This document shows positions 6,031 through 59,692 of a stretch of 64,000 nucleotides of DNA, piece by piece; the first letter of the stretch is position 1; every line of letters begins with the position of its first letter. Made by a program: the position numbers and the translations under genes. The notes under the pieces are model-generated. The model worked only from the letters and a program-made list of their open reading frames with translations, did not search any database and had not been told where the DNA came from. Source of the stretch: Candidatus Hydrogenedentota bacterium (GTDB lineage Bacteria > UBA8481 > J006). Location of the stretch: positions 82,600 through 146,599 of the forward strand of contig RFFU01000074.1 of NCBI GenBank assembly GCA_003697085.1. Direction: 5' to 3'.

Positions 6031-6046
6031 CGGGAAAGGACGGCGA

Positions 6047-33874: not shown

Positions 33875-34011
33875 AGTGACGGAAGGGGAGATTGTCATCA
33901 AGGAAAAGAAAACGAGATTGGTTCAATGCCTCAAAGTTGCTTCGAAGTTGCAGAATGATGGGAATTGGAATTTGGAGGAAGAATCGGGTATCTGGGAAGG
34001 TGGAGTCGGAG

Positions 34012-34317
34012 TCAGGGGTTTTTGAGTTTCTCCTCGACACTGCGGATTTTCGCTTCAATTGATTCGGCGCGGTCGGTGCGCGTTCCCACGCGGATCGTCG
34101 TTGAGATGCGGGGCACGCCCATTCTGTGAACGGCTTCGTGGCAGGCTTTGACGACGCGGAAGACCTCGTCCCACTCCCCTTCGATGTTGGTTCCGTATCC
34201 GTGAAGACGGTACGTCAGACCCGAATCGCGAATGATCCTTTCGCATTCGGCGACATATCTCGAAAGAGAGACACCGACACCGATCGGAACAACACAGAGA
34301 TCGACGATGACTTTCAT
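34012..34317 (-). CDS. MTH1187/YkoF family protein (UPF0045, thiamine/ligand-binding ACT-like)
   Basis: 101 aa. MKVIVDLCVVPIG...YVAECERIIRDSGLTYRLHGYGTNIEGEWDEVFRVVKACHEA matches the YkoF/MTH1187 family. Confidence 0.8.
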   Translation of the reverse strand: MKVIVDLCVVPIGVGVSLSRYVAECERIIRDSGLTYRLHGYGTNIEGEWDEVFRVVKACHEAVHRMGVPRISTTIRVGTRTDRAESIEAKIRSVEEKLKNP

Positions 34318-34390
34318 AGAATATATTTTCTCACCTTTCCTCCCGGTAAAAAAGAAAAAAGAAGATATTCACTTTCGAAAAACGCCTTGT

Positions 34391-35413
34391 TCAGAATGTC
34401 GTGTCCCTTTGTATGAGCGATACCGGAAGGACATAATGGTATCGGCGGATTTTTTTACCGGCGATTATTTTGAGAAGAAGATCCGCGGCTTTATAGCCCA
34501 TTTGCCACGCAGGAACCCGGATGGTCGTTAATCCGATCGCCTGAGTGTAACGCCAACTCACATCGTTGTAGCCGACGATTCCGGCTTCTCCAGGAACGGA
34601 AAGGCCCGCCTCGGAAAGGATTTCCAGGAGAGGAAGTGCGAACTCGTCGATCGAAAGAAAAAAACCGGCGGTATGGGATTTCCTTTTGAGAATATTCCGG
34701 AGTTTCTGTAACGGGGCTTTACCCGATTCATCGACATTGACGAAAATGACCGGTTGAGGATCAAGTCCCTTTTGAAATCCGGCCAATTTTTGTTTTTGGC
34801 TGTAACTCGAAGAAAGAGAGAGAAAATAGTATTTTTCATAACGCCCCCGCTTCAGTACGCGTGCTGCTTGTATTCCTCCATCAAAGGCGTCGGCCATGAC
34901 AGAGGGAACCATGTCAAGAGAATCGTTGCGGAAATTGACGAACACGAACGGAAAAGACCGGGAGATTAATTGGCGCAGTTCACCGGGTTTTATTCTTTCT
35001 CCGAAAAATAGTCCCCCGTCGACCCGGCCTTCCCGGATCGCTCGAAGATAATTCGGGGTCTTATCAAGACGGGAAGTATTTTCTAGAGTGGAAGCAAGTT
35101 GAACGTAATAATTGGATTTTTCCAGTAAATGGGCCGCACCCGAAAGAACCAACGAATGGTACGGCGCCGCTGCTGAGTAAAGTTCGTCGCTTACGAAGAG
35201 AATGTTGGACGTTCTGCTCATTACCAGACCGCGGGCGGCCGCGTTGGGGTAATAGTGATTCGCTTTACAAACCTCAAGAACCCTTTTTCTCGTCTTGGGA
35301 GCAAACGGTACCTTTTTGTCTGGATCGTTGAGAATGCGCGAAACGGTCGAAATGGAAACTCCCGCTCTTTTTGCGATCTCTTTGATTCCTACACGCGTTC
35401 TCGATTGCCCCAT
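34391..35413 (-). CDS. LacI family transcriptional regulator
   Basis: N-terminal HTH IKEIAKRAGVSISTVSRILN followed by a periplasmic-binding-protein-like sugar-binding domain. 340 aa. Confidence 0.9.
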   Translation of the reverse strand: MGQSRTRVGIKEIAKRAGVSISTVSRILNDPDKKVPFAPKTRKRVLEVCKANHYYPNAAARGLVMSRTSNILFVSDELYSAAAPYHSLVLSGAAHLLEKSNYYVQLASTLENTSRLDKTPNYLRAIREGRVDGGLFFGERIKPGELRQLISRSFPFVFVNFRNDSLDMVPSVMADAFDGGIQAARVLKRGRYEKYYFLSLSSSYSQKQKLAGFQKGLDPQPVIFVNVDESGKAPLQKLRNILKRKSHTAGFFLSIDEFALPLLEILSEAGLSVPGEAGIVGYNDVSWRYTQAIGLTTIRVPAWQMGYKAADLLLKIIAGKKIRRYHYVLPVSLIQRDTTF

Positions 35414-35463
35414 AGTCTCATCCTGGTTCTCACCGCTATATCTTCAAACCTCATCATTCAAAA

Positions 35464-35476
35464 TGCAACGTTTGCA
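35464..35476. promoter_or_regulatory. candidate LacI-family operator (TGCAACGTTTGCA, near-palindrome with a CG centre)
   Basis: It lies 50 bp upstream of the LacI-family gene start, in the divergent region shared with the ABC transporter operon. It fits the LacI/GalR/CcpA operator consensus TGnAAnCGnTTnCA except for one missing base in the left half. Confidence 0.4.
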
Positions 35477-35867
35477 CTTTTTTGAGGATTGACGTGTTCC
35501 GGGTCCTTTCCGGCCCTTCGAACCGCAGTGTTTTCAAGGCGGAACACACAAAAATCCCCATTGCAACAATCTTTAATAGTAAGATGAGAGAAAAACAAGA
35601 AAAAAATGAAATTTAGGGAAGAACCAGGAAGGGAGGGCGATGTGACGCGGAACGATTCTCCTCTCATTTGATTTCACGGCGTTGAGGAGCCGGGATTCTC
35701 GATGACAGAAGATCGGGAAGGCCGCGCGGTGGCGTGCCGTTACAAAAAGAAATGATTCTGGCCGATATCCGAGACATTGAATAATATTTTTAGAGGAATT
35801 AAAACGTGCCAAGTAAAAAATACTGGAAGAGGTTCAGGTAAACGAATAAAATCACGGTGAGAGGGAA

Positions 35868-38531
35868 ATGGAACCCGGCGAGGACGTAAATTTAGGGAAC
35901 GAGCGTTGGCGCGCGTGGCAGATTCTGGGGTGGATCGGAATTGCTTTGGTAGCCTGTATTGTACTTCTCTTTGGTTCCCATAAAGAAACCGTTGTGGAGA
36001 AGGGCGTTGTCCTTCACTTGAAGGAACGTCCCGAGTTTAGTTACGACAATTTGGAAGTCCGCGCGGAAAAAGCGGTTTTTAAGGAGTTCATTAGAAGACA
36101 TCCGGAAATTACGCTTCGGAATACCTCGGACCTAAAGGTGCCGAATACGCCGAGCACCGAGCTGCTTTCCATCGCCGGCAACATCGCACCGGATGTCTTT
36201 CGCGTCTCCTTTTCCCAGATGCGGAGTTATATTGAAGAGGGCTTTGTCGCCGATATTACTGATGATTTGGACACGGAATATCGCAGGAATATCCCGGAGA
36301 AGATATGGAAGATTGCGGAGAAGGAGGGGCGCTATTACGGAATTCCCGCGGAGTATATGAACGCAGGATTGATTTACAACAAACAACTCGTTGCGGAAGC
36401 CGGGTTGGATCCTGAAAAGCCTCCCCAAACATGGGAGGAACTCTTTTATTGGGCGCAAGTGTTGACGGATCGGGACAAGATTATGCATTGGGGGGATAAA
36501 ACTTTGGTTGGGCGATGGGGACTGGGTTGGCTGCTGGGGGAAGCGATCGAAGATCGAAATTTTACGACGACGGCGGGAGAATTTTTCGCGAATTTGGTGT
36601 GGCAATATGGCGGAAAAATGGCTGTCGAAAAGGACGGGAAATACAGGGTGTCCTATGCCTCACCCGCCGGAAAAAAAGCTCTGGATCTGATCTGGAAATT
36701 CAAATGGGCACACTGGTTCAAGGATGAACAGGGCCGCGTTATTACGTTGCGGGATGCCTCCGGAAATGTGGTGGTGACCCGGGACCAGTTTGAAAAACTC
36801 GCCGCCCGTGGACCGTACAGAGACGAATACGGCCAAAAGTGGGATTTGCGAAAATTGGATTCGGAAAGAAGAATTATTCGCGGCGTGATCAATGGTAGCG
36901 CTTCCGGCGAAGAGGCCTTAGGAGGAACGAGTCGAGGGTTCGTGCTCTTTGCCGTGGGCGCCGAACGCTGCGCAATGGCGATCGGCTATCCGCGTAGAAA
37001 TTTGGTCAAAATGGTCCAAGGATACGGCCATAAGGACCTCTATGGTTTCGCCCCTTTGCCCGTCGTCAAAGGGGGAAGGCCTGCTAACATGGTTCGCGGT
37101 TTTGTTTATGCCGTGAATGCTCAGATTCGGGATCCGAAGATTCGAAAGGCGGCCGTAGAGTACATCAAATTCCTCTGCTCTGAAGAAGCGAATCGAATGC
37201 GGACGGAACAGTACCTCGCGGAGGACTGGGGTATCCTTGTCCGACCGGATTGGCTTAGAAAATTCGGGTACAACGATGTCTATGAACAGATTCCAAAGGA
37301 ATGGCGGGAGTCCTATCAAAAGATGATGGCGCATTCCCGTTTGGCTCCGCTCTTTGGAAAATACGCCCAAATCCAGTCGAACGAGCTCAAAGAACCGCTC
37401 CAAAGGATTCTGTTGGCGGATGCGGAAAAGCCGGATTTGATGCGGTTGTTGAAAACTTCCGAAAAACGGGCCAATACGATGGTGTTGGGAATGCGCGATC
37501 CAAAGGATATGGCCCGGAAACGACGGATCGCGATAATTGTGCTTTCGTTGGCCGTGTTGGTAATCGGCTTTATCGTTGTTCGGTATTTGAGAGAGCTGAC
37601 TCAGGCCTATTCTTCGGACACGGGGCCGGCCGCCGTCAGCGGCCGGAAAGGGGGGTGGACACATCACGTCGGAGCATGGATTTTCTTGATTCCGGCAGTT
37701 CTGACTATACTTCTTTTTCAGTACTATCCACTCCTTCGCGGCTCGGCGATGGCATTTTATGATTGGAAACTCCTGGGGCCGAAAACTTTTGTAGGACTCG
37801 ATAATTTTATCGAGGCCTTCAGCCAACCGCTCTTTTATAAGGTGGTCAAGAATACTTTGTATTACGTCGGGCTTACAATGTCCCTTGGATTTGTTGCACC
37901 GGTGATTCTCGCTATTCTCCTCGCGGAGGTCCCCAAGGGGAAGATATTCTTTCGTGTCATTTACTATATCCCGTACGTGACGACTGGGCTGGTTATTCTT
38001 TTTCTCTGGAAGATGCTTTACTATCCGGGAGAGAGCGGCTTTCTGAATACGTTGTTGGCCCATTTCGGTCTGGGCCCCTATCGCTGGCTTGAGGATCCGA
38101 AACTTGCGATGATTTGTGTTGTACTTCCGGGAATTTGGGCCGGTGCCGGTGCCGGATCGATAATTTATCTTGCAGCTCTTGCAGGAATCCCTGAAGAAGT
38201 TTATGAAGCAGCGGATCTTGACGGGGCCGGAGTCTTTGACAAGATCATCAAGATTACAATTCCGTTTCTCAAACCTTTGTTGATTATTAATTTCGTCGGG
38301 GCGTTTATCGGGGCGTTTCACGCGTCCGCCAACATATTAATGATGACAGGAGGAGGTCCGCTTAATGCAACGAATGTTTTGGGAACGGAGATTTTCATTA
38401 AATCGTTTATCTATTTGAAGTTTGGTTATGCTACCGCGCTCGCCTGGATCCTCGGAGCGTTCCTTATCGGATTTACACTGCAGCAACTAAAGATTATGAA
38501 GAATCTCGAATATCGTACGACGGGGAAATAG
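35868..38531 (+). CDS. carbohydrate ABC transporter component: fusion of a solute-binding protein domain with a MalF/UgpA-type permease
   Basis: N-terminal TM anchor, then an extracytoplasmic SBP-like domain of about 500 aa (family-1 SBP-like). A TM segment (IAIIVLSLAVLVIGFIVV) is followed by a 6-TM permease with the EAA loop EAADLDGAGVFDKIIKITIPFLKP. The 887-aa ORF is continuous. Confidence 0.8.
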   Translation: MEPGEDVNLGNERWRAWQILGWIGIALVACIVLLFGSHKETVVEKGVVLHLKERPEFSYDNLEVRAEKAVFKEFIRRHPEITLRNTSDLKVPNTPSTELLSIAGNIAPDVFRVSFSQMRSYIEEGFVADITDDLDTEYRRNIPEKIWKIAEKEGRYYGIPAEYMNAGLIYNKQLVAEAGLDPEKPPQTWEELFYWAQVLTDRDKIMHWGDKTLVGRWGLGWLLGEAIEDRNFTTTAGEFFANLVWQYGGKMAVEKDGKYRVSYASPAGKKALDLIWKFKWAHWFKDEQGRVITLRDASGNVVVTRDQFEKLAARGPYRDEYGQKWDLRKLDSERRIIRGVINGSASGEEALGGTSRGFVLFAVGAERCAMAIGYPRRNLVKMVQGYGHKDLYGFAPLPVVKGGRPANMVRGFVYAVNAQIRDPKIRKAAVEYIKFLCSEEANRMRTEQYLAEDWGILVRPDWLRKFGYNDVYEQIPKEWRESYQKMMAHSRLAPLFGKYAQIQSNELKEPLQRILLADAEKPDLMRLLKTSEKRANTMVLGMRDPKDMARKRRIAIIVLSLAVLVIGFIVVRYLRELTQAYSSDTGPAAVSGRKGGWTHHVGAWIFLIPAVLTILLFQYYPLLRGSAMAFYDWKLLGPKTFVGLDNFIEAFSQPLFYKVVKNTLYYVGLTMSLGFVAPVILAILLAEVPKGKIFFRVIYYIPYVTTGLVILFLWKMLYYPGESGFLNTLLAHFGLGPYRWLEDPKLAMICVVLPGIWAGAGAGSIIYLAALAGIPEEVYEAADLDGAGVFDKIIKITIPFLKPLLIINFVGAFIGAFHASANILMMTGGGPLNATNVLGTEIFIKSFIYLKFGYATALAWILGAFLIGFTLQQLKIMKNLEYRTTGK

Positions 38532-38535
38532 AGCG

Positions 38536-40854
38536 ATGCCAATCATTGCCAAGGTCGGCCGGAAGGATATCGGGGTTCGCTTTACGATTCTTGCCATTTA
38601 CCTGCTGTTGATCTTGGGAGGGATTACGATGGTGTATCCCTTCCTCCTAATGGTGAAAATTTCAATTTCATCCAAAATGGACAATGATGATTATGGATTG
38701 CCCCGCTTTCTTTACGATGAAAACCTCCTGATGGCGAAATACTTGAATGAAAGGCATTCCTACTGGACTGGGCCGATGGCGTTACGTTACCACCGTGACT
38801 ACGGCATCTGGAAAGATCTGATAACTCCTGTAGCTCAAAAAGTGTATCCGCTGGATGACTCCACCCGCGTTGATCGGATTCGAAAAGCTGCGGAAAAATT
38901 GAAAAACGATTTGGAGGCACGGATTCATCCGAAAGACCAAAGGTTGATTACCGCGAAAAACCTGATACTGAGTCATCTTCAACGTATTTTGGCGAGAAAA
39001 ACGCCTTATGACGACCCTCTTCTCACTCGGCTCTTTGAAAGAAATTATGTGGAATTGGGGGAAAGGCTGGGCGAAATAAGGGATCCGAAACATTCGTCCG
39101 TTCTCCGGATTATTCGAAAGGATATCAAGAATCTCGAAGCGTTACGTTCCCCGAAATTCGATCTGAATGACAAGAAGGTGATGGCGGATGTTCAACGGTT
39201 GGGAATTGAGTGGCTGAATTATAAAAAGACGCTTCCGTTGGAATTGAAACAAGTGAATTTTATGAACTACAGTAACAATGGGAAAAACCAACGGGCGTTT
39301 CAGGAGTTTGTTAAGAAAAAATACGGAGGGGATATTTCGAGGGTAAATCGAATTTACGAGGACGGTGTCACCTATTTTTCGGAAATTCTTGCCCCTCATG
39401 GAGGCAGTATCTTTGGTGTGGTCCGTTCTCGTTATTCTGCGAAGGATCGAGATTGGATCGCGTTTAATAAAACGTTGAAGGAAGAGGAATTCTGTGTCCG
39501 TTACTGGGAGGGAAATGAAGCGCGTTGGGGGGAATTTTTTGCCGATCAAGTGAAACGTTATGCCCTGAAAAATGCTCCGGAGAAGTACCATCGATGGGAG
39601 GCCTATTTCAATACGGAGTACAGCGTGGAAGCCATCAACGATATTTTGGGGACCTCTTTTATTCAGGCAAGTTGTCTCTCGCTTCCACTCCCTGACAAAG
39701 GATTGCTGAAAAATAGAGTCGTTCGCGGTATATGGAAAAGGTTTCTTCTGGAAAATCGGGAAAATCTCAATTTCCTCAGGATCAACGTTACAAAGAAACT
39801 TCAGGAGCGGTTTTCGGAATATCTTCAAAAAAAATATGGAACCGTCTCGCGGCTTAATCGGGTATTGTCCCGGGAATTGTCAGAGGGGGGGACGAAGTTT
39901 CGGAGGTTTGAAGATTATGAATTGGCCGCCAATCGCCCGTTGGAGACGATGGCGATGCGGAGAGATTGGGATGAATTTGTGCGGACTCAGTGTCCTATTG
40001 AATATATTCAATATTATTCCTACGAGGCGCGGTGGCGGGACTACCTGAGACAAAAATACGCGAAGATTGAGAACTTCAATAAAACTCTTAAAACACGGCG
40101 TTACCGGTCGTTCTCAGAGGTTCCAGCCCCCTTTGCAGAATATGACCTCTATGATTATCTCAAGCATAGAAAAGGGTTGCGTTGGCGTTTTGTATGGGCG
40201 AATTATCGGTATGCCTTGGATCGCCTCTTCTTTAATGGAAGGGCGGCCTATAATACTCTTGTCCTCGTGGCCTTATCCCTGTTTACTGCGCTGACGGTGA
40301 ATCCGCTTGCGGCTTATGCACTTTCGAGATTTCGTTTGAGTTACGCCCATAAAGTTCTCCTTTTCTTTTTGGCGACGATGGCGTTTCCCCCCGAGGTGAC
40401 GATGATTCCGAATTTCCTTTTGATAAAAGAATTGGGCCTCCTGAACTCGTACGCGGCTCTCGTGCTTCCCGGGATGGCGAATGGCTTTTCAATCTTTCTT
40501 CTGAAAGGGTTCTTTGACAGTATTCCGTTGAGTTTGTATGAGGCGGCAGAGCTTGATGGGGCCAACAATTTTCAAATGTTTTATAAAATCACACTTCCCT
40601 TGTCGAAACCTGTCTTGGCCGTCATTGCGTTGAACACGTTCATGTATGTCTACGGAAGCTACCTGTGGGCGTTGCTGATTTGTCCGGCCAGAAAATTTTG
40701 GACGATTATGGTTTTTGTTACACAATTTCAACAGGTGCAACTTCCTCATCAAACAATGGCGGCGTTGGTCCTGGCTGCATTGCCCCCCTTGATTGTCTTT
40801 GTGCTTTGCCAAAAGGTGATTATGCGCGGGATTGTCATTCCCCAGTCGAAGTGA
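38536..40854 (+). CDS. carbohydrate ABC transporter permease (MalG/UgpE-type) with a ~480-aa periplasmic insertion after TM1
   Basis: The C-terminal 270 aa are a canonical permease with the EAA motif YEAAELDGANNFQMFYKITLP. The N-terminal TM FTILAIYLLLILGGITMVYPFLLMV is followed by a long helical, Trp/Tyr/Arg-rich domain that is not recognisable. Confidence 0.8.
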   Translation: MPIIAKVGRKDIGVRFTILAIYLLLILGGITMVYPFLLMVKISISSKMDNDDYGLPRFLYDENLLMAKYLNERHSYWTGPMALRYHRDYGIWKDLITPVAQKVYPLDDSTRVDRIRKAAEKLKNDLEARIHPKDQRLITAKNLILSHLQRILARKTPYDDPLLTRLFERNYVELGERLGEIRDPKHSSVLRIIRKDIKNLEALRSPKFDLNDKKVMADVQRLGIEWLNYKKTLPLELKQVNFMNYSNNGKNQRAFQEFVKKKYGGDISRVNRIYEDGVTYFSEILAPHGGSIFGVVRSRYSAKDRDWIAFNKTLKEEEFCVRYWEGNEARWGEFFADQVKRYALKNAPEKYHRWEAYFNTEYSVEAINDILGTSFIQASCLSLPLPDKGLLKNRVVRGIWKRFLLENRENLNFLRINVTKKLQERFSEYLQKKYGTVSRLNRVLSRELSEGGTKFRRFEDYELAANRPLETMAMRRDWDEFVRTQCPIEYIQYYSYEARWRDYLRQKYAKIENFNKTLKTRRYRSFSEVPAPFAEYDLYDYLKHRKGLRWRFVWANYRYALDRLFFNGRAAYNTLVLVALSLFTALTVNPLAAYALSRFRLSYAHKVLLFFLATMAFPPEVTMIPNFLLIKELGLLNSYAALVLPGMANGFSIFLLKGFFDSIPLSLYEAAELDGANNFQMFYKITLPLSKPVLAVIALNTFMYVYGSYLWALLICPARKFWTIMVFVTQFQQVQLPHQTMAALVLAALPPLIVFVLCQKVIMRGIVIPQSK

Positions 40855-40924
40855 TCGCCGGAACATAAACGAATACAACTTTCGAGGGGAAAAGGGGGAT
40901 TTTTTGAAAAAAAAGGAGGAAACG

Positions 40925-42004
40925 ATGGTTTCGGAAAATAGGTCTTTTATGGAAAACCTGGCTGTCTTGAAAAGGGCAAGAACCCGTTCCATCAGTCCAG
41001 AGAATTTTTCCGGGGAGAAAGGAAAGGGCGGAATGGCCACGGAAGGAACGGGTAAAGAATGTGCACGTGATTTAGGACAGGGCTGGAAGATATCACCGAG
41101 TGTTGTGATTGGTTCGGGGACCACGTTTGTGTTGGCCGAAATAGAAGGTCCCGGGGTGATTCAGCAGATTTGGCTTACGCCAACCGGGAATTGGCGCCAT
41201 CAAATCCTCCGGATTTTCTGGGATGATCAAGAAGTTCCGTCGGTTGAATCGCCCGTGGGGGATTTTTTCGCTATGGGGTGGGGGAGATTCGCCCCGATTT
41301 CCTCGTTGGCTGTCTGTGTTAATCCGGGAAGTGCCTTCAATTGTTATTGGGCGATGCCATTTCGAAGGAAATGTCGCATTACTTTGGAGAATATTTCGGA
41401 GGAGGATGTTGTTCTTTATTATCAGATTAACTATTCATTGGAGGATGTTTCCGAAGAGTGCGCGTACTTTCATGCGCAGTTTCGTCGCACGAATCCCCTG
41501 CCCTATAAACAGGTTTATACCATTTTAGACGGTGTCCGCGGCCGCGGACATTATGTGGGGACTTATATGGCCTGGGGTGTCAATAACAATGGATGGTGGG
41601 GGGAAGGGGAGATTAAGTTTTATTTGGACGGGGACGGGAAATTTCCAACGATTTGCGGAACCGGAACGGAGGACTACTTTTGCGGTTCCTATAATTTTGA
41701 AAACCGTGAGACGAAACAGTACCAGGAGTTTTCGACACCTTATTCCGGCTTGCACCAGGTAATTCGTCCCGACGGCGTCTATCAGTCTCAAACGCGTTTT
41801 GGGCTCTATCGCTGGCATCTTGTTGATCCGATCCGTTTTGAACAGGATCTGCAGGTTACCATACAAGCGTTGGGATGGCGAGGAACATCGGGGCGTTACC
41901 TTCCGCTCCAGGATGATATCGCTTCCGTGGCGTATTGGTATCAGACTTTACCGACGGCTCCTTTTCCGAGACTCCCAGACAAAGATTACCTGGAGGTGAT
42001 ATGA
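40925..42004 (+). CDS. DUF2961 family protein (glycoside hydrolase family GH172-like)
   Basis: About 360 aa with a beta-rich composition. Blocks GPGVIQQIWLT, YYQINY and GTGTEDYF are recalled from DUF2961/GH172 proteins. The ATG at 40925 is preferred over the ORF-track start at 40832. Confidence 0.55.
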   Translation: MVSENRSFMENLAVLKRARTRSISPENFSGEKGKGGMATEGTGKECARDLGQGWKISPSVVIGSGTTFVLAEIEGPGVIQQIWLTPTGNWRHQILRIFWDDQEVPSVESPVGDFFAMGWGRFAPISSLAVCVNPGSAFNCYWAMPFRRKCRITLENISEEDVVLYYQINYSLEDVSEECAYFHAQFRRTNPLPYKQVYTILDGVRGRGHYVGTYMAWGVNNNGWWGEGEIKFYLDGDGKFPTICGTGTEDYFCGSYNFENRETKQYQEFSTPYSGLHQVIRPDGVYQSQTRFGLYRWHLVDPIRFEQDLQVTIQALGWRGTSGRYLPLQDDIASVAYWYQTLPTAPFPRLPDKDYLEVI

Positions 42005-42007
42005 ACC

Positions 42008-44227
42008 TTGAGGGCGGGCTCGGCCTATCCAAGTAGAGAAGAACACGGAAGTCCGGAGGCGATTGTTCTCGAAGACGAACGATTGACGTTCCTTGCGGCG
42101 ATTCCGTCACTTGGGGAAGAACCACCCCATTTTGTTCGCGGGGAAGAGGAGGGGTGGAAGAATTTGAGGTTTGCCTGGGATCTCCGGGAGCCCGTGCAAC
42201 AAGATTCACTGGAGGTCGTGTTTACGCTTCAGGGATTGATAAAGTTTTTCCGGGGCGCCGCATCTTGTCCCGTGTGACGGAAACTGTATTCCCCGCGAAG
42301 TGTTTCGGTCTCCAGCACTTATTGCGGGGGACGGGACGGCCATCGTAGCGCTTGTGCCGGATTTGCAGGTCTGTGAACGATATCCCTTGCGGCCGTGGTT
42401 TCTCGATGTGGATGCTTCCGAGCAGAAGTTTGTATTTGGGATTTCCCGAGCGGAAACTGAGGGGCATGTGGGCTTTCGGAAGGTAGGGGGCACGGTATTC
42501 CCGAAGGGGAGAACGGAAATCGGCTTTTATTGGAGGGGATTTCGTGTCAAAGAAGGCATTAAAGACCCTTGGGAAGCGGTAAGCCGGTTTTTATGGCGGA
42601 AATATGGCCGGCCTCTTTTTCAACAGGGCCAACCGTCTAAGATTCCGTTGGACCGCTATGTTGAAACGGCGTACGGGTGGGCCTTTAACCGGTGGGAAAA
42701 GATCGTTTGGCGGGAATTTCAAATGGGAGAAACAAAGGTCGGAGCCTGTCGCCTGATCGTCACCGCAAGCGATTCGCCGAATTCACCGGGAAAACGTCCT
42801 TCGTGGGAGAAAGATTCGATCTGGAATCAAGCGTGGTTCAGCTCATTGCGGAGCGCATCGGGACTTTACCGGTATGCGCGCCGTACCGGCAATGTGGCTT
42901 TGAAGGAAAGAGCATGTATGACGAAGGAATTGGCGCTTTCGGCCCCTCAGAGGGCGGAGGGAATCTTTCCTTCCGTGTTTCTGGCGAGTGATCGATATTC
43001 CGAAGACGGAGTGCAATCGTGGGAGGAGGGGCGCTGGAGTAATTCGGATCGGGTCCCCGCTGAGCGCGGAATAACCAGGGAATGGTATCATGTATTGGAC
43101 ACCTCATGGACGGCTTTACAGGTGGTGCGATGGTACCGGGAATTGGAAGGAGATGAACGACTGCTCCGATATGCAAAACGGTATGCGGATTTCCCACTTG
43201 AGCGTCAAGAGGAGAAGGGCTTTTTTCCGGCTTGGTTGCATCCTGAAACTCTCGAACCAGCAAAGATTCTTTTCGAATCGCCGGAAACGTCGTTGAGTGT
43301 AACTTTCCTTTTGGAGTTGGCCGATCAGAAAACTGGGAGGGGTGAAGCCTATCGGAAGGCGGCGCTAAAAGGGATGGATGCCGTGATCGATGAAATTATT
43401 CCGGACGGTCGCTGGGAAGATTTTGAAACATATTGGTCCTGCAGTCCTTTTGGAAGAGAAGAATATTATGGTAAAAAGATCGAGCGTAGTGGAATGTATA
43501 AGCAGTGAAATTTGTCGATGTACTGGACAGCGGAAGCGTTGTTGAAGTGCTTTCGCGCTACCGGGGAAAAGAAGTATCTTCTCTGGGGGGAAAGAACAAT
43601 TCACGAACTGAGTATGACACAGCAGATTTGGCAACCTCCCTTTGTTGCTGTTCCGACGTTGGGAGGCTTTGGAGTGATGAACTTTGACGGAGAATGGAAT
43701 GATGCTCGCCAGAGTCTCTTTGCGGAGTTGTTTCTCGATTACTATCGGGTGACAGGAGAGGCGGAATTGTTTGAAAGAGGCGTGGCCGCCTTAAAGGCCG
43801 GATTCATCATGATGTACTGTCCAGAGAATCCCGCGGTGAAAAAATGTATGAAAAAGCCCATCCATTTTTTGGAAGAGAAGATTACGGTTTTATGATGGAA
43901 AATTTCGGACATTTTGGAATCTTGACCCCTCCTGAAAAGGGCATCGGAAATTTTACTCTTTACGATTGGGGACCGGGTTCTGCATGTAAGGCGTGGTGTC
44001 GAATCAGAGACCATTATGGGGATGCCTACGTGGACCTCGGACGCAATCGTGCCTTTGGTATTAATTCTGTATCGGTAGATCTGGATAAGAGAAATATTTT
44101 GGTCCGTGATGCTTCTGTTGGGACCGACGGGCGGTCGCGCGATATCAAGGTCGTTTTCAGCGATGGAAAGGAGAGAAACATTGAATTGCCTCGGGAAGGA
44201 AAAGTAGAAATTCCAAAGGCGATTTAA
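42008..44227 (+). pseudogene. disrupted ~740-aa putative glycosidase-like gene: pieces in frames 2, 0, 0 and 2, joined by two homopolymer-associated frameshifts and one in-frame TGA
   Basis: ORFs 42008..42277, 42300..43508 (open from 42243), 43512..43895 and 43844..44227 read as one continuous protein-like sequence. Junctions are at the T5 run near 42245-42249, at an in-frame TGA at 43506-43508 (aag cag TGA aat), and at the A6 run near 43839-43844. Confidence 0.55.
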
Positions 44228-44789
44228 AAATTGGCCGAGAGTGTGGAATAACCGAACGGTTTATCAGCCTGGAAGGGAGGCGATCGGAGGAGAGAGGGCG
44301 GCGGGGGTCGGAAGCGCGTGTCAGAATACAAGGATAAGCGGAAGAGAGGGCTGTAAATACAGGTGCTTTTTCAATGAGATCGTTTTTCGACGATAAAGCA
44401 AAAGCGGCAGTACGGGCGGCCGGAAGAAAAGAGAAGAAGGAAGGCACGGGGGCGAAGAGGGGGTCGGATTCAGTGTAAGCAGGCTTGAAAATTACGGCTC
44501 TTGTGCGGCAAAGCAAAATAATCTTTACATTAGAACGATTTAAATATTAGATAAAGAATATTTGTGTGGGCAACCGAGAGACGACGGGGTCCCCCCAAGG
44601 CCCCGTATTTTGGGAAGGAACCACTGGGCAAGGAGGGGAAGCGCGGCCGGGCGCTATACGGGGGAGGTTTTGCAAAGCGGATGCGGTTCCGCGCCTCGCG
44701 CGGGTGCCGGCAGAACGTGGGACTGGAAAGGTGTATCTGCGGGACGGTCTGTAAAGCGGCTGGCGTCGATTGATGAAAAGGAGGATGGG

Positions 44790-46253
44790 ATGGTGAAAAG
44801 CGGGATTAAGGTCGGGATATTGACGTTTGGTGACGGGCGGGATTTTTTGGCGGAACCATTGCGTGAGGTCAACGAGCATTTTCTGAGACAACTTTCGCGG
44901 AGGTTGGAGGATTCCGGACACGAAGTTATCACCGGCACCGAGGTCATCTGGCGGAATGAAATCGCCGTTCGTGAGGCGAAGCGGATGGCGGCGGCCGATG
45001 TTGACGTCGTCATTTACAATTATTCCGTCTGGGCATGGCCGCAGTATGCGCGGTTGGCCGCGCAGTTTCTCCCGCAGCCTGTGATACTCTTTTCGAATGT
45101 GAATCCTGAAAAACCGGGTTTGGTCGCCATGCTTGCGCACGCGGGGTCTTTGGATCAGGTGGGGATTTCGTTCTGCAAATTATTTGGTGACATAATGCAG
45201 AACGAGGTTCTTGAGGCTGTCAACAGGAAGATTAACGCCATTGCCGCGAAGACGCGTTTGAGGGGAAAGACATTCGCGCTGATCGGTGGGCGTTCCCTGG
45301 GGATCGACACGACGGTTTCGGATCCGGCTCTTTGGATGAAACTGTTTGGTATTGATGTGGATCACGTCGACCAGTTTGAGGTTTACCGGCGTGCGGAGGA
45401 GGAGTGTCGGAAAGGGGAGCGTGTAAATGCGGCTCTGGACTATTTGAAAAAGAAGGTACGAAAGATTCATTGGACGAAGCCGGATGCACAGATGAGGCTG
45501 ACCGAGGACCTTCTTCGGAAGCAGTTGGGAATGTATTACGCCGTTTACGATCTCTGTGAGGAGTTCAATTACGACTTCTGCGGTATCAAAGGCCAAAGGG
45601 AGATGACGGAGCATTACGCAACCGCCGATGTGGCGGAGGCCTTTTTGAACGATCCGTATGGTCCTGAGGGGGAGCCAAAGCGAGTGATCGTCTGTTCCAC
45701 GGAAGCGGATATGGACGCGGCATTGACGATGCAGGTTCTGCATCACCTTTCGGGAACGCCGGTGCTTTTCGCCGACGTCCGACATTATCACCAGGACGTG
45801 GGTGTGTGGGATCTCTGCAACTCCGGGCAGCATGCGACCTACTTTGCAGGTAAGTCTTTTGATCCGGAGGTCAACCTGGCGAAGACGGAGTTTCGACCGG
45901 AAGGGTTTTACTTTCCCGCCGGCGGCGCCGCCGTCTTCCATATCGCCCATCCCGGGAAGATGACCTTGGCTCGGTTGACGCGGGGGGGGGACACGAATCG
46001 GTATCGGATGACCTTTTTCACGGGCGAGTGCAAGGACTTCGGCGAGGAGAAGAATATGGCCCTGGCCGAAGGAGTTCAGGACAATTGGCCGCATGCATTT
46101 TTGGAATTTTCCTGTTCGATGCGGGAGTTTATTGACAATTTTCACTGCAATCATATTCACGCGGTATACGGCGATTATCGTGAAGAATTGCGTGAGTTCT
46201 GTCGTTGCTCCGGTATCGAAGCCGTCGAATTGGGCCTCTCCGGAAAGAAATGA
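44790..46253 (+). CDS. L-fucose isomerase family sugar isomerase (FucI/D-arabinose isomerase-like, short form)
   Basis: GILTFGDGRD (compare FucI GIRPVIDGRR) and LFADVRHYHQDVGVWDLCNSG (compare FucI VFADVRTYW). 487 aa from the ATG at 44790, with an AAGGAGG RBS 5-13 nt upstream. The ORF-track frame extends upstream with junk-like translation. Confidence 0.75.
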   Translation: MVKSGIKVGILTFGDGRDFLAEPLREVNEHFLRQLSRRLEDSGHEVITGTEVIWRNEIAVREAKRMAAADVDVVIYNYSVWAWPQYARLAAQFLPQPVILFSNVNPEKPGLVAMLAHAGSLDQVGISFCKLFGDIMQNEVLEAVNRKINAIAAKTRLRGKTFALIGGRSLGIDTTVSDPALWMKLFGIDVDHVDQFEVYRRAEEECRKGERVNAALDYLKKKVRKIHWTKPDAQMRLTEDLLRKQLGMYYAVYDLCEEFNYDFCGIKGQREMTEHYATADVAEAFLNDPYGPEGEPKRVIVCSTEADMDAALTMQVLHHLSGTPVLFADVRHYHQDVGVWDLCNSGQHATYFAGKSFDPEVNLAKTEFRPEGFYFPAGGAAVFHIAHPGKMTLARLTRGGDTNRYRMTFFTGECKDFGEEKNMALAEGVQDNWPHAFLEFSCSMREFIDNFHCNHIHAVYGDYREELREFCRCSGIEAVELGLSGKK

Positions 46254-46268
46254 GGAGGATTGAAAGGA

Positions 46269-47930
46269 ATGAGTGAGCCTGTCTTCAGCATAGGAGTTGA
46301 TTACGGGACAAACGCGGTTCGCGTTTTGGTGGTGCGGTGCGATACAGGCGAGGAAATCGGTGCAGCGGTCTACGATTACAAGCATGGTGAAAAGGGGATA
46401 TTGGCGGGGAAAGGGGAAATGCACCTGGCGCGTCAGAGTCCCCGTGATTATATCGACGGACTGAACGAGGCCTTGGGGAAGGCTCTGGCTCAGGCAGATG
46501 GCGCCGAGGCCTTTTCCAGAGAGCGGATCGTCGGTATCGGCGTTTCTGCTACAGCAAGTACTCCGGTGCCCGTGGACAGAGAGGCTGTTCCTTTGGGTGT
46601 ACGGGACGAGTTTCAAGAGGATTTGTCAGCGCAAGCCTGGCTCTGGAAGGACCACACCAGTATAGCGGAGGCGGAGGAGATAGTAGAGGTTGTCAAAAAG
46701 AAGGAATTACCGTATCTGAAATTTTACAGCGGCTTGATGTCTCCGGAGTGGTTTTGGCCGAAGGCGTTGAAGTTTATTCGGTCGGCACCGGAAGTGGTCC
46801 GGAAGGCCACCGCGGCTTGGTTGGAATTGACAGATCTGGTACCGGCTTACCTCACCGGGGTGTCGGTTGCTGATGATGTCGTTCGGGGAATCTGCTCCGC
46901 CGGCTTCAAAGGAATGTACTCAGAAGAGTGGGGAGGGTATCCGCCTAAGGATTTTTTGAAGAACTTTTCGGAAGAAGTGGCGCGATTGGCAGGGAGAAGT
47001 CCGGTTTTCAAGGGCCCTGGGGAGAGTGTCGGATCGTTATCGGATGAGATGGCCTCACGGTACGGATTATCCCGAAAGGTGCAGGTCAGTGCGGGAATCA
47101 TCGATGCTCATTCCGGCGCCTTGGGAAGCGGAGTCGGAGAACGCTCCCTGGTCAGTGTTATGGGGACTTCCTCGTGTAACATCGGTTTGATTCCTTACGA
47201 GCGGTATCGCGGACCGATTCCGGGAATTTCCGGCGTCATCAAAGACGGTGTTGTTCCGGGGATGTATGCTGTTGAATCGGGTCAGGGAGCGGTTGGTGAT
47301 ATCTTTGCTTGGTTTGTCGAACGGATCCTCGGCGGAAGGTGCAGTCACGAAGAACTTACCGAACGGGCGCGGAATATGGGACCCGGTGAGACGGGATTGG
47401 TGGCTCTGGATTGGCACAACGGAAATCGCAATGTTCTGATGGATATGGAATTATCCGGGTTGATCGTCGGACTGCGGCTGGATACGACTGTGGAGCAGAT
47501 CTACCGGGCTTTGATTGAAGCAACGGCTTTCGGGCTGAGGACGATCATCGAGCGAAAAAAGGAATACGGCTATGAAGTGGAGAATTTGATAGCGTGTGGT
47601 GGGATCGCCAAAAAAAACGACCTGGTGTGCCGGATCTACGCGGATGTTCTTGGAGTTCCTGTTCACGTGGCCGGATCGAGCGAGGCGTGTGCGTTGGGGG
47701 CAGCCGTCTGCGGCGCTGTAGCCGGGGGTGCGTTTCAAAGCTTATCGGCCGCTCAGGAGAAGATGGTCCCGAAGGCGCGAGGAAGTTTTGAACCGAATCT
47801 TGGACAAAGGGGAATCTGGGATGAGGTGTATGGGATTTATCGCGATCGTTACGAACATTATTCACGCGGCGGCGGCGGCGGAGACATCATGAAGTCTCTT
47901 TTGGCACTGCGTGACGAAGCGCAAGCGTAA
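46269..47930 (+). CDS. araB: ribulokinase (FGGY carbohydrate kinase family, AraB-type)
   Basis: FSIGVDYGTNAVRVLVVRCDTGEEIGAAVYDY and LWKDHTSIAEAEEI parallel E. coli AraB [23 protein letters not shown] and LWKDHTAVEEAEEI. 553 aa. AGGAGG RBS upstream of the ATG at 46269. Confidence 0.85.
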   Translation: MSEPVFSIGVDYGTNAVRVLVVRCDTGEEIGAAVYDYKHGEKGILAGKGEMHLARQSPRDYIDGLNEALGKALAQADGAEAFSRERIVGIGVSATASTPVPVDREAVPLGVRDEFQEDLSAQAWLWKDHTSIAEAEEIVEVVKKKELPYLKFYSGLMSPEWFWPKALKFIRSAPEVVRKATAAWLELTDLVPAYLTGVSVADDVVRGICSAGFKGMYSEEWGGYPPKDFLKNFSEEVARLAGRSPVFKGPGESVGSLSDEMASRYGLSRKVQVSAGIIDAHSGALGSGVGERSLVSVMGTSSCNIGLIPYERYRGPIPGISGVIKDGVVPGMYAVESGQGAVGDIFAWFVERILGGRCSHEELTERARNMGPGETGLVALDWHNGNRNVLMDMELSGLIVGLRLDTTVEQIYRALIEATAFGLRTIIERKKEYGYEVENLIACGGIAKKNDLVCRIYADVLGVPVHVAGSSEACALGAAVCGAVAGGAFQSLSAAQEKMVPKARGSFEPNLGQRGIWDEVYGIYRDRYEHYSRGGGGGDIMKSLLALRDEAQA

Positions 47931-48438
47931 TCGGTGGAGATTTAATCAATGGAAAAAGAAACCATGAAGAACACCGGAACGCGTTCCATTGTGAGACCTT
48001 TTGCTCGGCCCAGAGATGAAGATAAGAAAGATGTGGGTGGTGTCTTGAGGGGGAAGAGTAGGGGTCGGGAGATCGGCGTGAAAGGCGGATCCGAACGGTG
48101 TTTGAGATGACGTGTTTTTACAAAAATAGAAGAGAAGCAAAAGGCGAAAAAGGGAATCATCCGAAATGATATCGAGGAAGGATTAAGAATAAAGAATTTT
48201 TTTGGTGTTCGGAGAACCGATGCGCGAATATTTTCGGAGAACATCCGGCCTCTTCGAGGTCCCGTTCCGCCGTCGATACCGGGTCGTATCGATTTGGAGC
48301 AGCCCCCAGCCCAAGGAGCAACCGGATGTCCGCTCGTTCGACAGCGTTTCGTGAGGGTCAGGGCGTATACATTGCGTGTACGGTTTATTTAGAGATGTAT
48401 AAATAAATGCTTTTAATGAGACTTGAAATTTCGGTTGA

Positions 48439-51400
48439 ATGATGTTAATCTTTTTATTTAAGATGGTGAAAAAGAGAAAAAGAGCAACACCTGCTTTTAT
48501 AAGTACCTGGTGTTGGCCGTGCGCCCTGGTGTCCTTTCTTCTCGGAAACTTGATTTTTGGTGTCGCGCCTCCGGCTCGTGCCGCGATAGAAGTCTTCAAT
48601 ATTACGCCGACGATTGTGAAGGCGGGAAGCGGGGCGCCGATAATTATTTCGGGGCAGAATTTTTCCTCGACAACGCCGGTGAAAATCGGTGACAAACCTG
48701 TGTCCCCGGTGGTGTATCTCAATTCGCATACGCTCAAGGTCTCGGTACCGACCTCGCTTGACTCAGGTGTCTATTCGATTACGGTGGGTTCGGGGGCGGA
48801 TTCCGCGACGCTCGTGAATCCGCGGCTCCACGTGCTTTCTTTCGCGGCGGAGGTGGCCTATATCGCCGGAGGGAACGACACCCTGGCTGTCGTCAACCTT
48901 GATGACGGCTCGATCATTACGACCGTGTCGATGCCGGGAATCCTTGGAGGTTCCAACCAGCTTCCTGTTGGAATGGCGGCCGCCCCGGACGGAAACAAGA
49001 TTTTTATCGCCTCCTTTGATGGGGCGTTTCCCAGAAAAATTTACGTGTTTTCGACCGTTTCGAATACTATTGTGGATGAGATTTCCGTCAGTGATCCGGT
49101 TCGGATCCGTATGTTTCCGGGGGGAGAAACATTGGCGGTCATCAGTAATGATCCACCGAATAATGTTCACTTCTTTCGGTTGTCGGATACGACGGAAGTG
49201 TACAGTGGCGGGAGCGTCAGCTGGAACGGCACCGATCTGGCGATGCATCCATCCGGAAAGTACTTTTATGCCATCTATTCAAGTGGAAGCTATATTTCTG
49301 TCATTGATGCCAGGGATGGAACGACGGTGGACAGCATCTCTGTTACTTACAGTGGTGTCGGACCGCATTTCTTGACGATCTCGCCGACGGGGGATTCTCT
49401 GTATGTCAGTTTTTCGGAACAGAATGCGTTCGCGGCGGTGGGGCTAACCGACACGGGGATGATTCGAGGAGACACCGCGGTGATTCCGAAGGCGACGGGG
49501 GTGATGAACAATGCCGTGATGGTAATGAATCTGGATGGAACAAAGCTCTTTTATGGCGGGAATCGGGTTGCGTCGTATGGGGTTACGAATCTAAAGACGG
49601 GAGTCGCGTCGACGATTACAGGAACTTGGAATAATACGAATGGATCTGCAAGGAGTTCCGATGGTCAATACATCTGGGCGACGAATTATTCGACGGAAAC
49701 ATTGAACAAGATTCGAATTTCGGATGATGTCGAGGAAAGTACGATAGACATCACGTCGGCAGGGGGGATCGGAGGGATGGGAATTCTTACGCTGCCGCGA
49801 GTGATTCCGATGAACGATTCGATGATACCGTATATTCAATCGGTATCGCTTTATGTTCCCGTAGGCGGCGAAGTGACGATCAACGGTTTTTTTGACAGTG
49901 CGTCACACTATGGTTTCACCTCCACGGATACGGTTTGGATTGGAGGAATTCCGGTGGAGACAATGACGGTTCTCGGCCAAACTCTGATCAAGGCGACGTT
50001 ACCGTCGTCGATCCCCGCTGATACAGTGGTGGATGTTCTGGTCAAGAATGTCGTTTCGGGCATGACGTCCGATTCTCTTGGGTTTCAACCTCAGGATACG
50101 GTGACGGTGACCGGGCCGGCGCCGACGATTACGGCGATCGTTCCTGACAGCGGTTATTCTGGGGCCGTTACGCCGGTGACCATCACGGGGACCAACTTTG
50201 ATCCGGTGTTGACAAAAGCCTATATTGAAGGAACGGAACTGGCGAACGTAACCTATGTGTCACCAACGCAACTTACAGCGGAGATTCCCAATGGACAAAG
50301 TCCAGGAGTGCACAACATCAGTGTGGCGAACTATCCGGTAAATGAACAGTGGGATACGCTGTGGAACGCCTTTACGGTCAATCAGACACAGATGGAAATT
50401 TCCGGAGCGCTTCCAAGAAATCCCGTGCTCAAAGGCGACTCCTTTTGGATGTGGATCTACGGTTCAGGTTTCGACACGTCCATGGTTCCGACGGTTACAC
50501 TCGGAGGGGTCGCGCTGAGTCGAGTCAAAGTCCCAAATACCAAGGTGATCACGGCTTTTTATGACGGTGTAACGCCGCTGGCTACGGGATGGAACAACGT
50601 GACCGTGAGTTATGGGGCGTTTCCAGATAGTCAGGCGCAGTTGGTTAATGCTGTCGAGGTTTTCGACAGCGGCGCACAGTACATTTATCTGCTTCCTTAC
50701 CTCGATGCTTCCTCCGATTCCCTGTATGTTGTCGATGTCGCCAAGAATGAAGTTGTCGACACCATAGAAGTAGGAAATGTCGGCTTTGATGGAGCGTTGG
50801 ACATTTCTCCGGACGGAGAATATTTGTTGGTTACGGCGTCCGATGGAAAGACCTTGAAGGTCGTTCGCTTGTCGGACAATACAATTGTTTCAACGAAAAC
50901 GTTTTCACAAGTTGTCACGTGCGGGGTCTTTTCGCAGGATGGTTCGGCTGTTTACGTAGGGTACGCTCCTGTTTCGGCTTCCGCCGCGATCAATAAATAT
51001 TCCTTTCCTGGTTTCTCCCTCTTGAAATCCTATCCGACGTCGGGGTCGGTTCTGGACTTTGTGGCAATCTCCCCGTTGGAAGATTATGCTGCTTATGGTC
51101 GGAAATGGGATCCCACGATGAAACTGATGGATTTATCCACGGGAGCCGAGACGATACTGGCGGGAACATATGTCAACGGTTCGGACCGGGATATTTATTT
51201 TTCTCCGGACGGATCGAAACTCTATGTTACCAGTGTTAACGGGGGAGCGACGACGGATTCGCTCGTCGTCGTCGATGTGGCGACAAACACCGTCCTTTAT
51301 GATACGCTTCTTCCTGTGTTGACGGGGGGACAGAACGGCGCCTACAGCCTCGTGTTTCATCCATCAGGCGACACCTACTTTGTGTCCTCTTTCGGCGGCT

Positions 51401-54400
51401 TTATAGCCTTCGATGCAGCGACAAACAGGTTGCTGGATTCCGCCGCCCTCGGTTCACAATCAGGTGGGATCGATATTCTTCCGGACGGAACACGCGTCTA
51501 CCAAGGGGTATCATCGTGGTCCGGATGGGATGGTTGGATTTACGCACCGGTGACCTATCCGGGGGGAAATGTTTCCTTGGGGACCCCCGTTCACACGGGA
51601 ATCCCGGGTGATATTCGTGTTATCCCCAGGGGGGTGAAATATGTCTTTCGCGGCTTGGTACCGCCGCATCTTACGATTGCTTCTCCGGACAGTGGAATAG
51701 AAAATGAAACGCAGACGATTACGTTATACGGAAGCGATTTTTCTCCTACACCGACAGTATATTTCGGGGGAGTGGTCTCTTCTTCCGTTACCTATGTAAG
51801 CTCGACGGAGTTGACGGTCGTAGCCCCCGCATTAACGGCAGGTACCTATGCTATTCGCATTGTCAATCCGGATCTGGGTGAAAGTACGAAAGACAGCGCG
51901 TACACTGTTTATCCCGCTGCGGCTTTCGTTCCGGACACGGCCTTTGGCAGTTTTTACAAGGATCCTTCCCTAAGGGATTCCGTAAGCCTCTTCGTGCCGG
52001 GTGATACGGTGTATTTTCAAGTGGGGGATACGAACCCCAATACGAATGCGGCGCGGCAGGAAACGTTGACGGTGGTGATCATCACGGCAGAAGGGGACAG
52101 CGCATCCCTCCTACTCTATGAGGATGGGGTCTCTTCGGAGACGTTTACCAGCGAAACCACACCTCTCTTTATCACGGACGATGCGGGGATCGGGGTGAAC
52201 GGGACGGACACCTACCTTTACGCAGTGTCTGGGGACACATTTTTTGTTATTTACTCGGATCCCCAGGACACCTCGGATACCTTCTTCTTGGTCGCGATGG
52301 TTCTTTCAGGGGCATCGGTCGGCGTTGTTTCTCTTGACAACGGTCAATACAGCCTCGATTCAACCGTAACGGCCACGGTAATCGACACCGACCAGAACAA
52401 GAACGCGGTACTGGCGGAGACGGTGACAGTTCGGTTGGTGTCGGAGGTCGGAAACGACACGGAATGGCTTATTTTGACGGAGACAGGGAACAACACCAAT
52501 GTTTTTGACAACAGTGGTGCTCCGGTTGCGCTTTCGGATACGACGGGGGCCGATTCGGGTTACGACGGAATTTTGAGGGTCGGGGGGGCGGACACGATCC
52601 ACCTTTTTTACGCGGATCAGTCCGGTAATATTGAAACTTCGGCGGTGACTGTCCCGCGGCAAACCGCTTCTTCGGTCGCATTTGCTTTATCGGAGTACCG
52701 TATTGACTCTTCCGTCACGGTTACGGTGACGGACCCGGACGAGAATCTGAATCCGACGGTAAAGGATCAAGTCCTGGTTTTCTTAACGGAGTTATCGACA
52801 GGTGATACGGAAACGGTGACGTTGACGGAGACGATGGACACGTCGGGAGTCTTTGTCTCGGTGGCAGGTGTCTTTCTTTCTGACACCTACGGGGCGGATT
52901 CGGGCCAGGACGGCGTTCTTCTCTGTGGAGATGCCGATTCGATTCAGGTTCTGTACTGGGATCGAAATTTTTCGGCTGCGGCAGACACGGCGGTGGATAC
53001 GACGAGTGTCTTTTTCAACTCCGGAGCGGGGACCGTGACGTTCATGGCTGTTAATGAGGAACTGGCTATAGGAAGCGAATCCATCGTTATTGTTGTATAT
53101 GATAGAGATGGGAACAAAAATCCGCGCCTCCAGGACAGTGTCTATGTTGAAGTAACCGTTGACGGGACAGCACGGGACACCGAACACCTTGTTCTTTACG
53201 AAACGGGAGATACGACGGCGACGTTTTCGGATTCGGTGGTCGGCTTGGTGTCGCCGCTGAAATCCCAAGAAAACGAAACAGGGACAGCCGACAACGGAAT
53301 CGTCGAGTGGTTGGTTGGAGATATTTTGCGTGTCACATATAGAGATTCCGACGGCGTCAGCCCAGCGGTTCAAGATACGGTTACAGGGGTTTCGTCGGCC
53401 TCGATCGGAAGTTTTTTTGGGATCAAGCTCGTGTACGAACTGGACTCCGCGGTCCTGATCGGTCTCTCGGATACGGATCAAAATCGGAATCTTTCCGCAT
53501 CCGAGACTGTCGAAGTTGTCGTCTTCGATGAGTCGTCGAATGATACCGAGATCGTTGTCCTGACAGAACGTGGAGTAGATTCCTGGTTGTTTGATAACAG
53601 CGGATCGTTGTTGAAATTATCAGACACCTCCGGCGGCGTAGTAGAGAATGATGGAATTCTTTTGGTAGGTGTGGGTGACACGATCCATTTCCGTTACCAG
53701 GATCAATCAGGTTTAATCGATACAACGACGACGACATTATCCCGGCAGACGCTTGCTTCGGTGTCCTTTTCGGTTTCGGAGTATCGAATTGATTCACGAG
53801 TGGTGGGAATAACCGTTTCGGATGCGGACGAGAATTTGTCCCCGCGCCGGAAAGATGTTGTAAAAGTTCTCCTGCGCAGCAATCTTTCCGGCGATACGGA
53901 ATATGTGCTTTTGGAAGAGACGACGGAGACGTCGGGTGTCTTTGTCGACACTGCCGGAGGCGTTCGTCTTTCCGACACGACGGGAAGGCTCTCTCCGTGG
54001 GACGGCGTGATTCTGGCGGGAGCGCCGGACAGCATCACCGTTACTTACGTTGATGAAAACAATGACGCCCTCGCGGACAGTGCCGTCGATAGTGTGACGG
54101 TTCTTTTTTATCCTGGTGCTGCGTCTGTAATCATTGATTCTTCCAACGGAGTCATTCAGACAGGTGCGGAATCTCTGGTGATTTTCGTCTTCGACAGGGA
54201 TCAAAATGCCGATCCGACGGTTCGGGACACGGTATTTGTTCTGGTGACGTTGGATACGCGTTATGCGGACACGGAATATCTTATTCTTCGCGAGACAGCA
54301 GAGACCTCCGGGATTTTCTCGGATTCCATTGCAGGGATCGTTAGGGCTCTGAGCACTGAGAATAATGCTGTTGGAACAGTAAACGACGGCGTTCTGCAGA

Positions 54401-59588: not shown

Positions 59589-59592
59589 AAAG

Positions 59593-59621: not shown

Positions 59622-59692
59622 ATCAATCGAAAAAATACCGGTATCCTTTTTGGGAAAAGAGAAGAAATCATTCATCAAAGGGAGATTAAAGA

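Follow-up and report, generated by a model that had tools for sequence, protein, structure and literature searches.

A broken six-hairpin glycosidase-like gene beside a GH172 gene in a hot-spring Candidatus Hydrogenedentota bacterium is very probably a genuine, fairly recent pseudogene

Enzymes of glycoside hydrolase family 172 (GH172) are exo-alpha-D-arabinofuranosidases that are found together with a strongly expressed "fucose isomerase" in PUL42, a D-arabinan polysaccharide utilization locus of Dysgonomonas gadei (PMC10115798), and in Microbacterium GH172 acts together with the GH116 exo-beta-D-arabinofuranosidase ExoMA2 in the degradation of D-arabinan (PMC10509167). The locus analyzed here lies in a stretch of 64,000 nucleotides (GenBank assembly GCA_003697085.1, contig RFFU01000074.1, positions 82,600 to 146,599), hereafter the window, from a Candidatus Hydrogenedentota bacterium of the Jinata hot spring, and its central element is a broken gene for a glycosidase-like protein directly downstream of a GH172 gene. 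With its GH172 gene, FucI-like isomerase gene and FGGY kinase gene, the window operon recalls the described D-arabinan loci; the isomerase and the kinase are as expected for the catabolism of D-arabinose. FucI and FucK have a role in D-arabinose catabolism. The protein family of the broken gene has the six-hairpin, or (alpha/alpha)6, fold in common with the GH76 alpha-1,6-mannanases and with other enzymes of this architecture (AGE/cellobiose 2-epimerase, GH88/GH105, GH8, and GH15) but differs from them in being only 9–14% identical in sequence and in that its barrel is flanked by N- and C-terminal beta-sandwich domains. The damage to the gene is of the same kind as in ordinary bacterial pseudogenes, which the NCBI annotation pipeline PGAP labels "frameshifted; internal stop": single-base insertions or deletions at short homopolymers together with a nonsense codon, between intact neighbors. 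The only peculiarity of the window gene with respect to such pseudogenes is its uncharacterized parent family.

The gene occupies window 42008–44227 on the forward strand and is split into four open reading frame (ORF) pieces (table 1; all positions are coordinates of the 64-kb window). Two single-base edits, the removal of one base near the T5 run at 42245–42249 and the addition of one A to the A6 run at 43839–43844, fuse the pieces into one frame of 2,220 nt and 739 codons that contains a single internal TGA (43506–43508). The repaired frame aligns end to end with intact homologues of 708–790 amino acids, the alignments spanning 93–99% of its length. An earlier note, made from the sequence alone, had read the four pieces as one protein of ~740 amino acids and had suggested that one base be restored at each run; its coordinates were all checked and found correct, and the repair does yield a full-length protein with homologues in the databases.

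The two frameshifts are located with different precision. At the first one, frame 2 reads ...LIKFF and frame 0 reads ...GAPHLVP where the homologues have PDFWWAPHLAP, and the removal of one base equalizes the length. Homology confines this frameshift only to TTTTTCCGGGG (42245–42255), within which the T5, C2, and G4 runs are equally possible, and an attempt to pin it to one of the three was abandoned because the homologues have FWW at this point and none of the three repairs fits better than the others. The T5 run, at which the switch from frame 2 to frame 0 had been placed, is therefore a plausible site but not a unique one. At the second frameshift, the addition of one A gives PENPAVKKMYEKAHPFFG, which has the same length as the PENPEAKALWEKVWPFFG of the homologues (VKKMYEK compared with AKALWEK). 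The segment PENPAVKK / MYEKAHPFFG matches the length of PENPEAKALWEKVWPFFG only if the ancestral run was A7, so that one A is missing by homologue length and the placement of the switch from frame 0 to frame 2 at the A6 run holds.

Coding sequence on both sides of the TGA had also been recognized earlier, and the homologues align across the codon, with Cys in 11 of the 15 aligned homologues and Asn in the other four (YKQ[C/N]NFSMFW). All four metagenome relatives that were recovered with a degenerate pattern spanning the codon carry TGC at the equivalent position (4/4). Judged from these sequences, a single change of C or T to A (TGC/TGT to TGA) would explain the stop codon. At the 5′ end, an ATG at 42001 overlaps the upstream stop codon as ATGA and is preceded by a perfect GGAGGTGAT Shine-Dalgarno sequence, but it opens frame 1 and meets a stop after 11 codons, and the gene caller applied to a second assembly (see below) started at the TTG at 42008. 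A third frameshift at the 5′ end is possible; it stays unproven because the N-termini of the homologues are not conserved.

The repaired protein matches 1,644 database proteins at E ≤ 0.001. The best 120 of these 1,644 homologues are single ORFs of 692–790 amino acids with 48–56% identity and 87–99% query coverage. In an alignment of 16 sequences (the query and 15 homologues) the query retains ~200 invariant columns over its whole length. Overall, the more than 1,600 family members are spread over the Chloroflexota, Planctomycetota, Hydrogenedentota, Aminicenantes, and Gemmatimonadota.

All three lesions are present in a separate Logan assembly of run SRR7905022 (Jinata Onsen source-pool sediment, Illumina HiSeq 4000, 2 × 100 bp), where the gene was called as the same fragments; the Jinata metagenomes themselves had been co-assembled with MEGAHIT. 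Logan contig SRR7905022_15588 (31,418 bp) matches window 32945–50854 over 17,910 bp with three single-nucleotide polymorphisms (SNPs) and no gaps, and two further stretches of the Logan assembly add 10 SNPs and no gap. The comparison of the two assemblies thus covers 38.8 kb with 13 SNPs and no insertion or deletion, including across runs of G8–G10 and C8. The SNPs are located at window 33643, 34462, and 38649, with the other 10 within 1–6558 and 49693–64000, and indicate strain-level variation of the Hydrogenedentota population at Jinata. None of them falls inside the broken gene.

Based on the homologue alignment and the two assemblies, the gene is in all probability a genuine pseudogene that was inactivated fairly recently. 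The ancestral gene of ~739 codons would have been a member of a widespread, uncharacterized six-hairpin glycosidase-like family, set in a LacI-regulated sugar operon of this hot-spring bacterium in the order ABC transporter, GH172, the now broken gene, FucI-like isomerase, and FGGY kinase. It would have been hit independently three times, by the insertion of 1 nt into TTTTTCCGGGG, by a TGC/TGT to TGA nonsense mutation, and by the deletion of 1 nt from an A7 run that is now A6; the first frameshift would end translation after 89 codons. As no complete barrel could be made from such a gene, the enzyme would have been lost while its neighbors remained intact.

The divergence of the window copy was compared with that of its homologues. 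Private changes affect 19 of the 196 columns that are ≥97% conserved (including H98E, E662K, N657P, and R267W), whereas the 120 homologues have at most 12 such changes (median 1) and the AccC protein of the same organism shows 3 in 156. Seven core columns are privately deleted, compared with two at most in the others, and these include a six-residue deletion within a beta-hairpin. Furthermore, identity between the window copy and its relatives is ~50%, compared with 66–73% among these relatives, whereas the neighboring GH172 is 66–68% identical to the GH172 proteins of the relatives; this relative-rate contrast weakly supports an extra divergence of the broken gene in what is a deep-branching organism. 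Most of the divergence probably predates the inactivation and reflects the deep lineage, perhaps with a contribution from a phase in which selection was relaxed or altered. In the repaired frame 5.2% of all possible substitutions create a stop codon, and a single stop allows fewer than ~100 neutral substitutions, equivalent to 4.5% of sites (P = 0.035 at 100 substitutions). Since only one stop codon is present, few neutral substitutions would have accumulated, and it is from this count that we infer the timing, a fairly recent inactivation; any order of the three lesions would be a reconstruction as well.

Several observations weigh against a genuine and recent pseudogene. Selenoproteins, too, are classically recognized by a TGA in alignment with Cys. 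The gene has no close relative: a scan of GTDB genomes gave a best protein identity of 56%, a scan of JGI metagenomes with the degenerate pattern across the TGA codon gave four matches of only ~67% DNA identity each, and exact-protein look-ups for close relatives returned only Logan contig SRR7905022_15588 (an exact look-up of an 847-amino-acid amylase-like protein gave no match). The best match of AccC outside the organism's own entry (100%) in its metagenome-assembled genome (MAG) is 71%, and the excess of private changes may in part reflect a deep-branching lineage rather than relaxed selection. The lesions are known at the level of assemblies, from which we infer their fixation and phasing, and the MAG and the Logan contig probably share reads from one hot spring, so that they represent independent assemblies and not independent populations.

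Another reading is that the lesions are real but sit on different haplotypes, or that an intact allele exists at appreciable frequency, with the assemblies showing a majority or chimeric path. The 13 SNPs in 38.8 kb demonstrate strain variation on site, and with distances of 0.3–1.3 kb between them the lesions cannot be phased by 100-bp reads. In both assemblies, nevertheless, each of the three sites is in its broken form, the Logan contig spans the gene without interruption, and the pseudogene contains no SNP, which together make such a polymorphism improbable. Even if it existed, most cells would carry at least one inactivating lesion.

Consensus errors in the homopolymer lengths and at the TGA, in a gene that the cells carry intact, are very unlikely. 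Such an artefact is suggested by the position of both frameshifts in or beside homopolymers, by the source of the sequence, a MAG, and by a possible overlap in reads between the Logan contig and the MAG. However, the data are Illumina reads of 2 × 100 bp, a chemistry that to our knowledge produces no systematic length errors at runs of 5–6 nt, and a different assembler working on a single run reproduced all three lesions without any insertion or deletion in the compared sequence. The window contains 109 homopolymers of at least six bases, at least 78 of which lie inside open stretches of ≥300 codons and stay in frame. The G10 and C8 runs in 62784–64000, which the earlier note had pointed out as keeping their frame, do so, and so does a T8 run, the last ORF being open across all three. 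The other genes that were tested show full-length coverage of their Pfam domains. As three lesions fall within one gene of 2.2 kb and one of them is a substitution of C or T by A, which is not a homopolymer error, a systematic artefact does not account for them, and it would be implausible for three errors to strike this gene when the other genes examined showed none. The earlier preference for a pseudogene over a sequencing artefact is therefore borne out by the recurrence of the lesions in an independent Illumina assembly, the in-frame homopolymers elsewhere, and the full-length intact homologues.

A recoded gene was considered as well. In the Cys/Sec pairs of selenoprotein families an in-frame TGA likewise stands opposite Cys, but the window gene differs from these in that it has no selenocysteine insertion sequence (SECIS) hairpin, the Cys is not conserved (Asn in 4/15), and two frameshifts are present besides. 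A minimum free energy fold of the 81 nt at 43500–43580 revealed no SECIS-like hairpin after the TGA when compared with shuffled sequences (z = −0.64), Rfam gave no match after the TGA at E ≤ 10 and none in the whole window at gathering thresholds, and no tRNA-Sec was found in the window. Selenocysteine was rejected on the missing SECIS, the missing Rfam match, and the use of TGA as the main terminator, and an alternative genetic code with TGA as a sense codon was rejected because 17 of the 25 confident window genes end in TGA. Programmed frameshifting was rejected on unremarkable downstream folds, with no stimulatory structure after frameshift 1 or 2 (z = +1.02 and −1.46, respectively), and on the intact homologues, none of which is split or shifted among those listed or aligned. 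Unlike dnaX- or insertion sequence-type −1 and prfB-type +1 frameshifting, the window gene has no canonical motif, stimulator, or conserved shift; the G AAA AAA at the second shift does not fit the canonical X XXY YYZ heptamer. A full-length protein made through selenocysteine at the UGA and slips at T5 and A6, or a gene switched on and off reversibly at these runs, is hardly credible: a −1 slip on AAA AAA, and likewise a +1 slip on UUU U, would bring back the frame of the homologues in the correct length, and the TGA does stand opposite Cys in most homologues, but the three serial events (+1 slip, selenocysteine insertion or readthrough, −1 slip) multiply to a negligible yield, runs of 5–6 nt are short for phase variation, two switches and a nonsense codon cannot revert together, the homologues listed or aligned are all single ORFs, and invariant residues have been lost too. 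The suggestion of a slippage-regulated gene, which the earlier note had offered as the alternative to a pseudogene, was thus dropped.

The parent family is uncharacterized and has neither a Pfam nor a CAZy family of its own nor a solved structure. Scans of the repaired protein against Pfam (E ≤ 0.1) and NCBIfam identified no family, and a sequence-profile search of the PDB with the family alignment gave 0 matches at E ≤ 1. Among the homologues, P0001 narrowly misses the cut-off for GH88 (PF07470; 25.8 vs. 26.6 bits) with a match that covers only profile positions 204–344 of 352, and weak GH88 matches are found in 45 of 54 family members together with fainter ones to other six-hairpin families. 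A confident AlphaFold2 model of P0001 based on 54 sequences (pLDDT 90.3, pTM 0.92) has an (alpha/alpha)6 barrel between two beta-sandwiches, one N-terminal and one C-terminal, and the predicted barrel superposes on solved six-hairpin members. Foldseek also returns PL27, GH94, GH116, and GH63, all with a low TM-score, and the six-hairpin fold is common to epimerases, lyases, and terpene cyclases as well. The label "glycosidase-like" that the gene had been given is supported by the model at the level of the fold only, with a putative catalytic role; at the level of sequence the query has no Pfam match, and the GH88 scores of its homologues lie close to the cut-off or under it.

Table 1. Features of the broken gene and of its neighbors, in window coordinates
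Feature	Position	Strand	Evidence
Whole probable pseudogene, remnant of a ~739-aa six-hairpin glycosidase-like protein	42008..44227	+	Aligns with intact homologues after two edits
Piece 1, frame 2, TTG start, 89 aa, part of the N-terminal beta-sandwich	42008..42277	+	Aligns to homologue residues ~1–70; same 89-aa gene called in Logan contig
Frameshift 1, one extra base within TTTTTCCGGGG, frame 2 to frame 0	42245..42255	+	Homologue alignment
Piece 2, frame 0, 402 aa, remainder of the N-terminal domain plus the larger part of the (alpha/alpha)6 barrel	42300..43508	+	Identical 402-aa product called in Logan SRR7905022_15588
In-frame nonsense TGA, single substitution from a Cys codon	43506..43508	+	Cys or Asn in homologues
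Piece 3, frame 0, last barrel helices	43512..43895	+	Carries invariant motifs WTAEA, LGGFGVMN, MMYCPEN
Frameshift 2, loss of one A (A7 to A6), switch from frame 0 to frame 2	43839..43844	+	Homologue alignment
Piece 4, frame 2, 127 aa, barrel end and C-terminal beta-sandwich	43844..44227	+	ORF list, homologue alignment
Intact GH172 (DUF2961) gene, immediately upstream of the broken gene	40925..42004	+	Pfam PF11175, E 1.3e-96, profile 1–235 of 235; Logan gene call
Intact L-fucose-isomerase-like and FGGY sugar-kinase genes, downstream	44790..47930	+	Pfam; Logan gene calls
LacI-type regulator (−) and two ABC transporter proteins (+), intact, same sugar locus	34391..40854		Logan gene calls; Pfam

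The two transporter proteins of the sugar locus are both unusually large and have fused domains. The one encoded at 35868–38531 (887 amino acids) has an SBP_bac_1 solute-binding domain fused to a BPD_transp_1 permease domain, and the one at 38536–40854 (772 amino acids) has an N-terminal part of ~500 amino acids with a faint GH42-like stretch, followed by a permease domain. The 560 nt between the broken gene and the FucI-like gene (44228–44789) are purine-rich and contain no called gene or Rfam match.

Outside the sugar locus, the G+C content of the window drops near ~34000 from ~0.59 (1–34 kb) to 0.46–0.54 (34–64 kb), and the low-GC part holds the sugar-utilization genes and a giant TIG-repeat protein. 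A mobile-element boundary at this drop was considered and rejected, as there is no tRNA and no Rfam family in the window and the gene calls of the Logan contig with Pfam families include neither an integrase nor a transposase. The giant ORF at 48439–58419 encodes 3326 amino acids with TIG/beta-propeller repeats and a faint Por_Secre_tail, and a second one, on the reverse strand at 19478–25543, encodes 2021 amino acids. The longest homopolymer of the window, a C11 run at 25893–25903, is located in the divergent intergenic region between this 2021-amino-acid ORF and an msrA-msrB fusion gene (26177–27604) and is possibly a phase-variable promoter tract. ARAGORN reported a "tRNA-???" with a two-base anticodon at 5006–5078, which lies inside a gene for an FAD-dependent oxidoreductase (4291–5472) and is almost certainly a false positive.

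Across the family, 18 of 80 genome loci have a GH172 gene at no more than 6 kb from the family member (among them L061, L073, L029, and L089), and a GH172 gene is also located beside the gene for homologue P0085. The family resembles the GH116 enzyme ExoMA2 in combining a beta-sandwich with an (alpha/alpha)6 barrel, and GH116 structures are among its Foldseek matches. In contrast to this likeness, it has no detectable sequence similarity to GH116, the functional link comes from the gene neighborhood alone, and the window copy would itself be dead. As a lead, the six-hairpin family may supply a partner activity to GH172. A more specific proposal, and a rather doubtful one, is that it could represent an undescribed glycoside hydrolase family whose members, like the GH116 exo-beta-D-arabinofuranosidase, would be partners of GH172 in attacking furanosidic glycans, for example D-arabinofuranosides; the original activity of the window enzyme would itself be a deduction.

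As a pseudogene the window gene is of little weight, being one decayed gene of a MAG of the kind that annotation pipelines routinely flag. It does provide a clean case of an Illumina MAG whose frameshifts at homopolymers can be genuine, and a recipe for separating real lesions from artefacts: comparison with a second assembly, a check that other runs stay in frame, and an alignment of homologues. If the proposed activity is correct, the window lineage would have recently lost this step while keeping the GH172, the FucI-like isomerase, and the kinase. The large, well-conserved, and uncharacterized six-hairpin family would be a reasonable target for the discovery of carbohydrate-active enzymes by way of an intact homologue.

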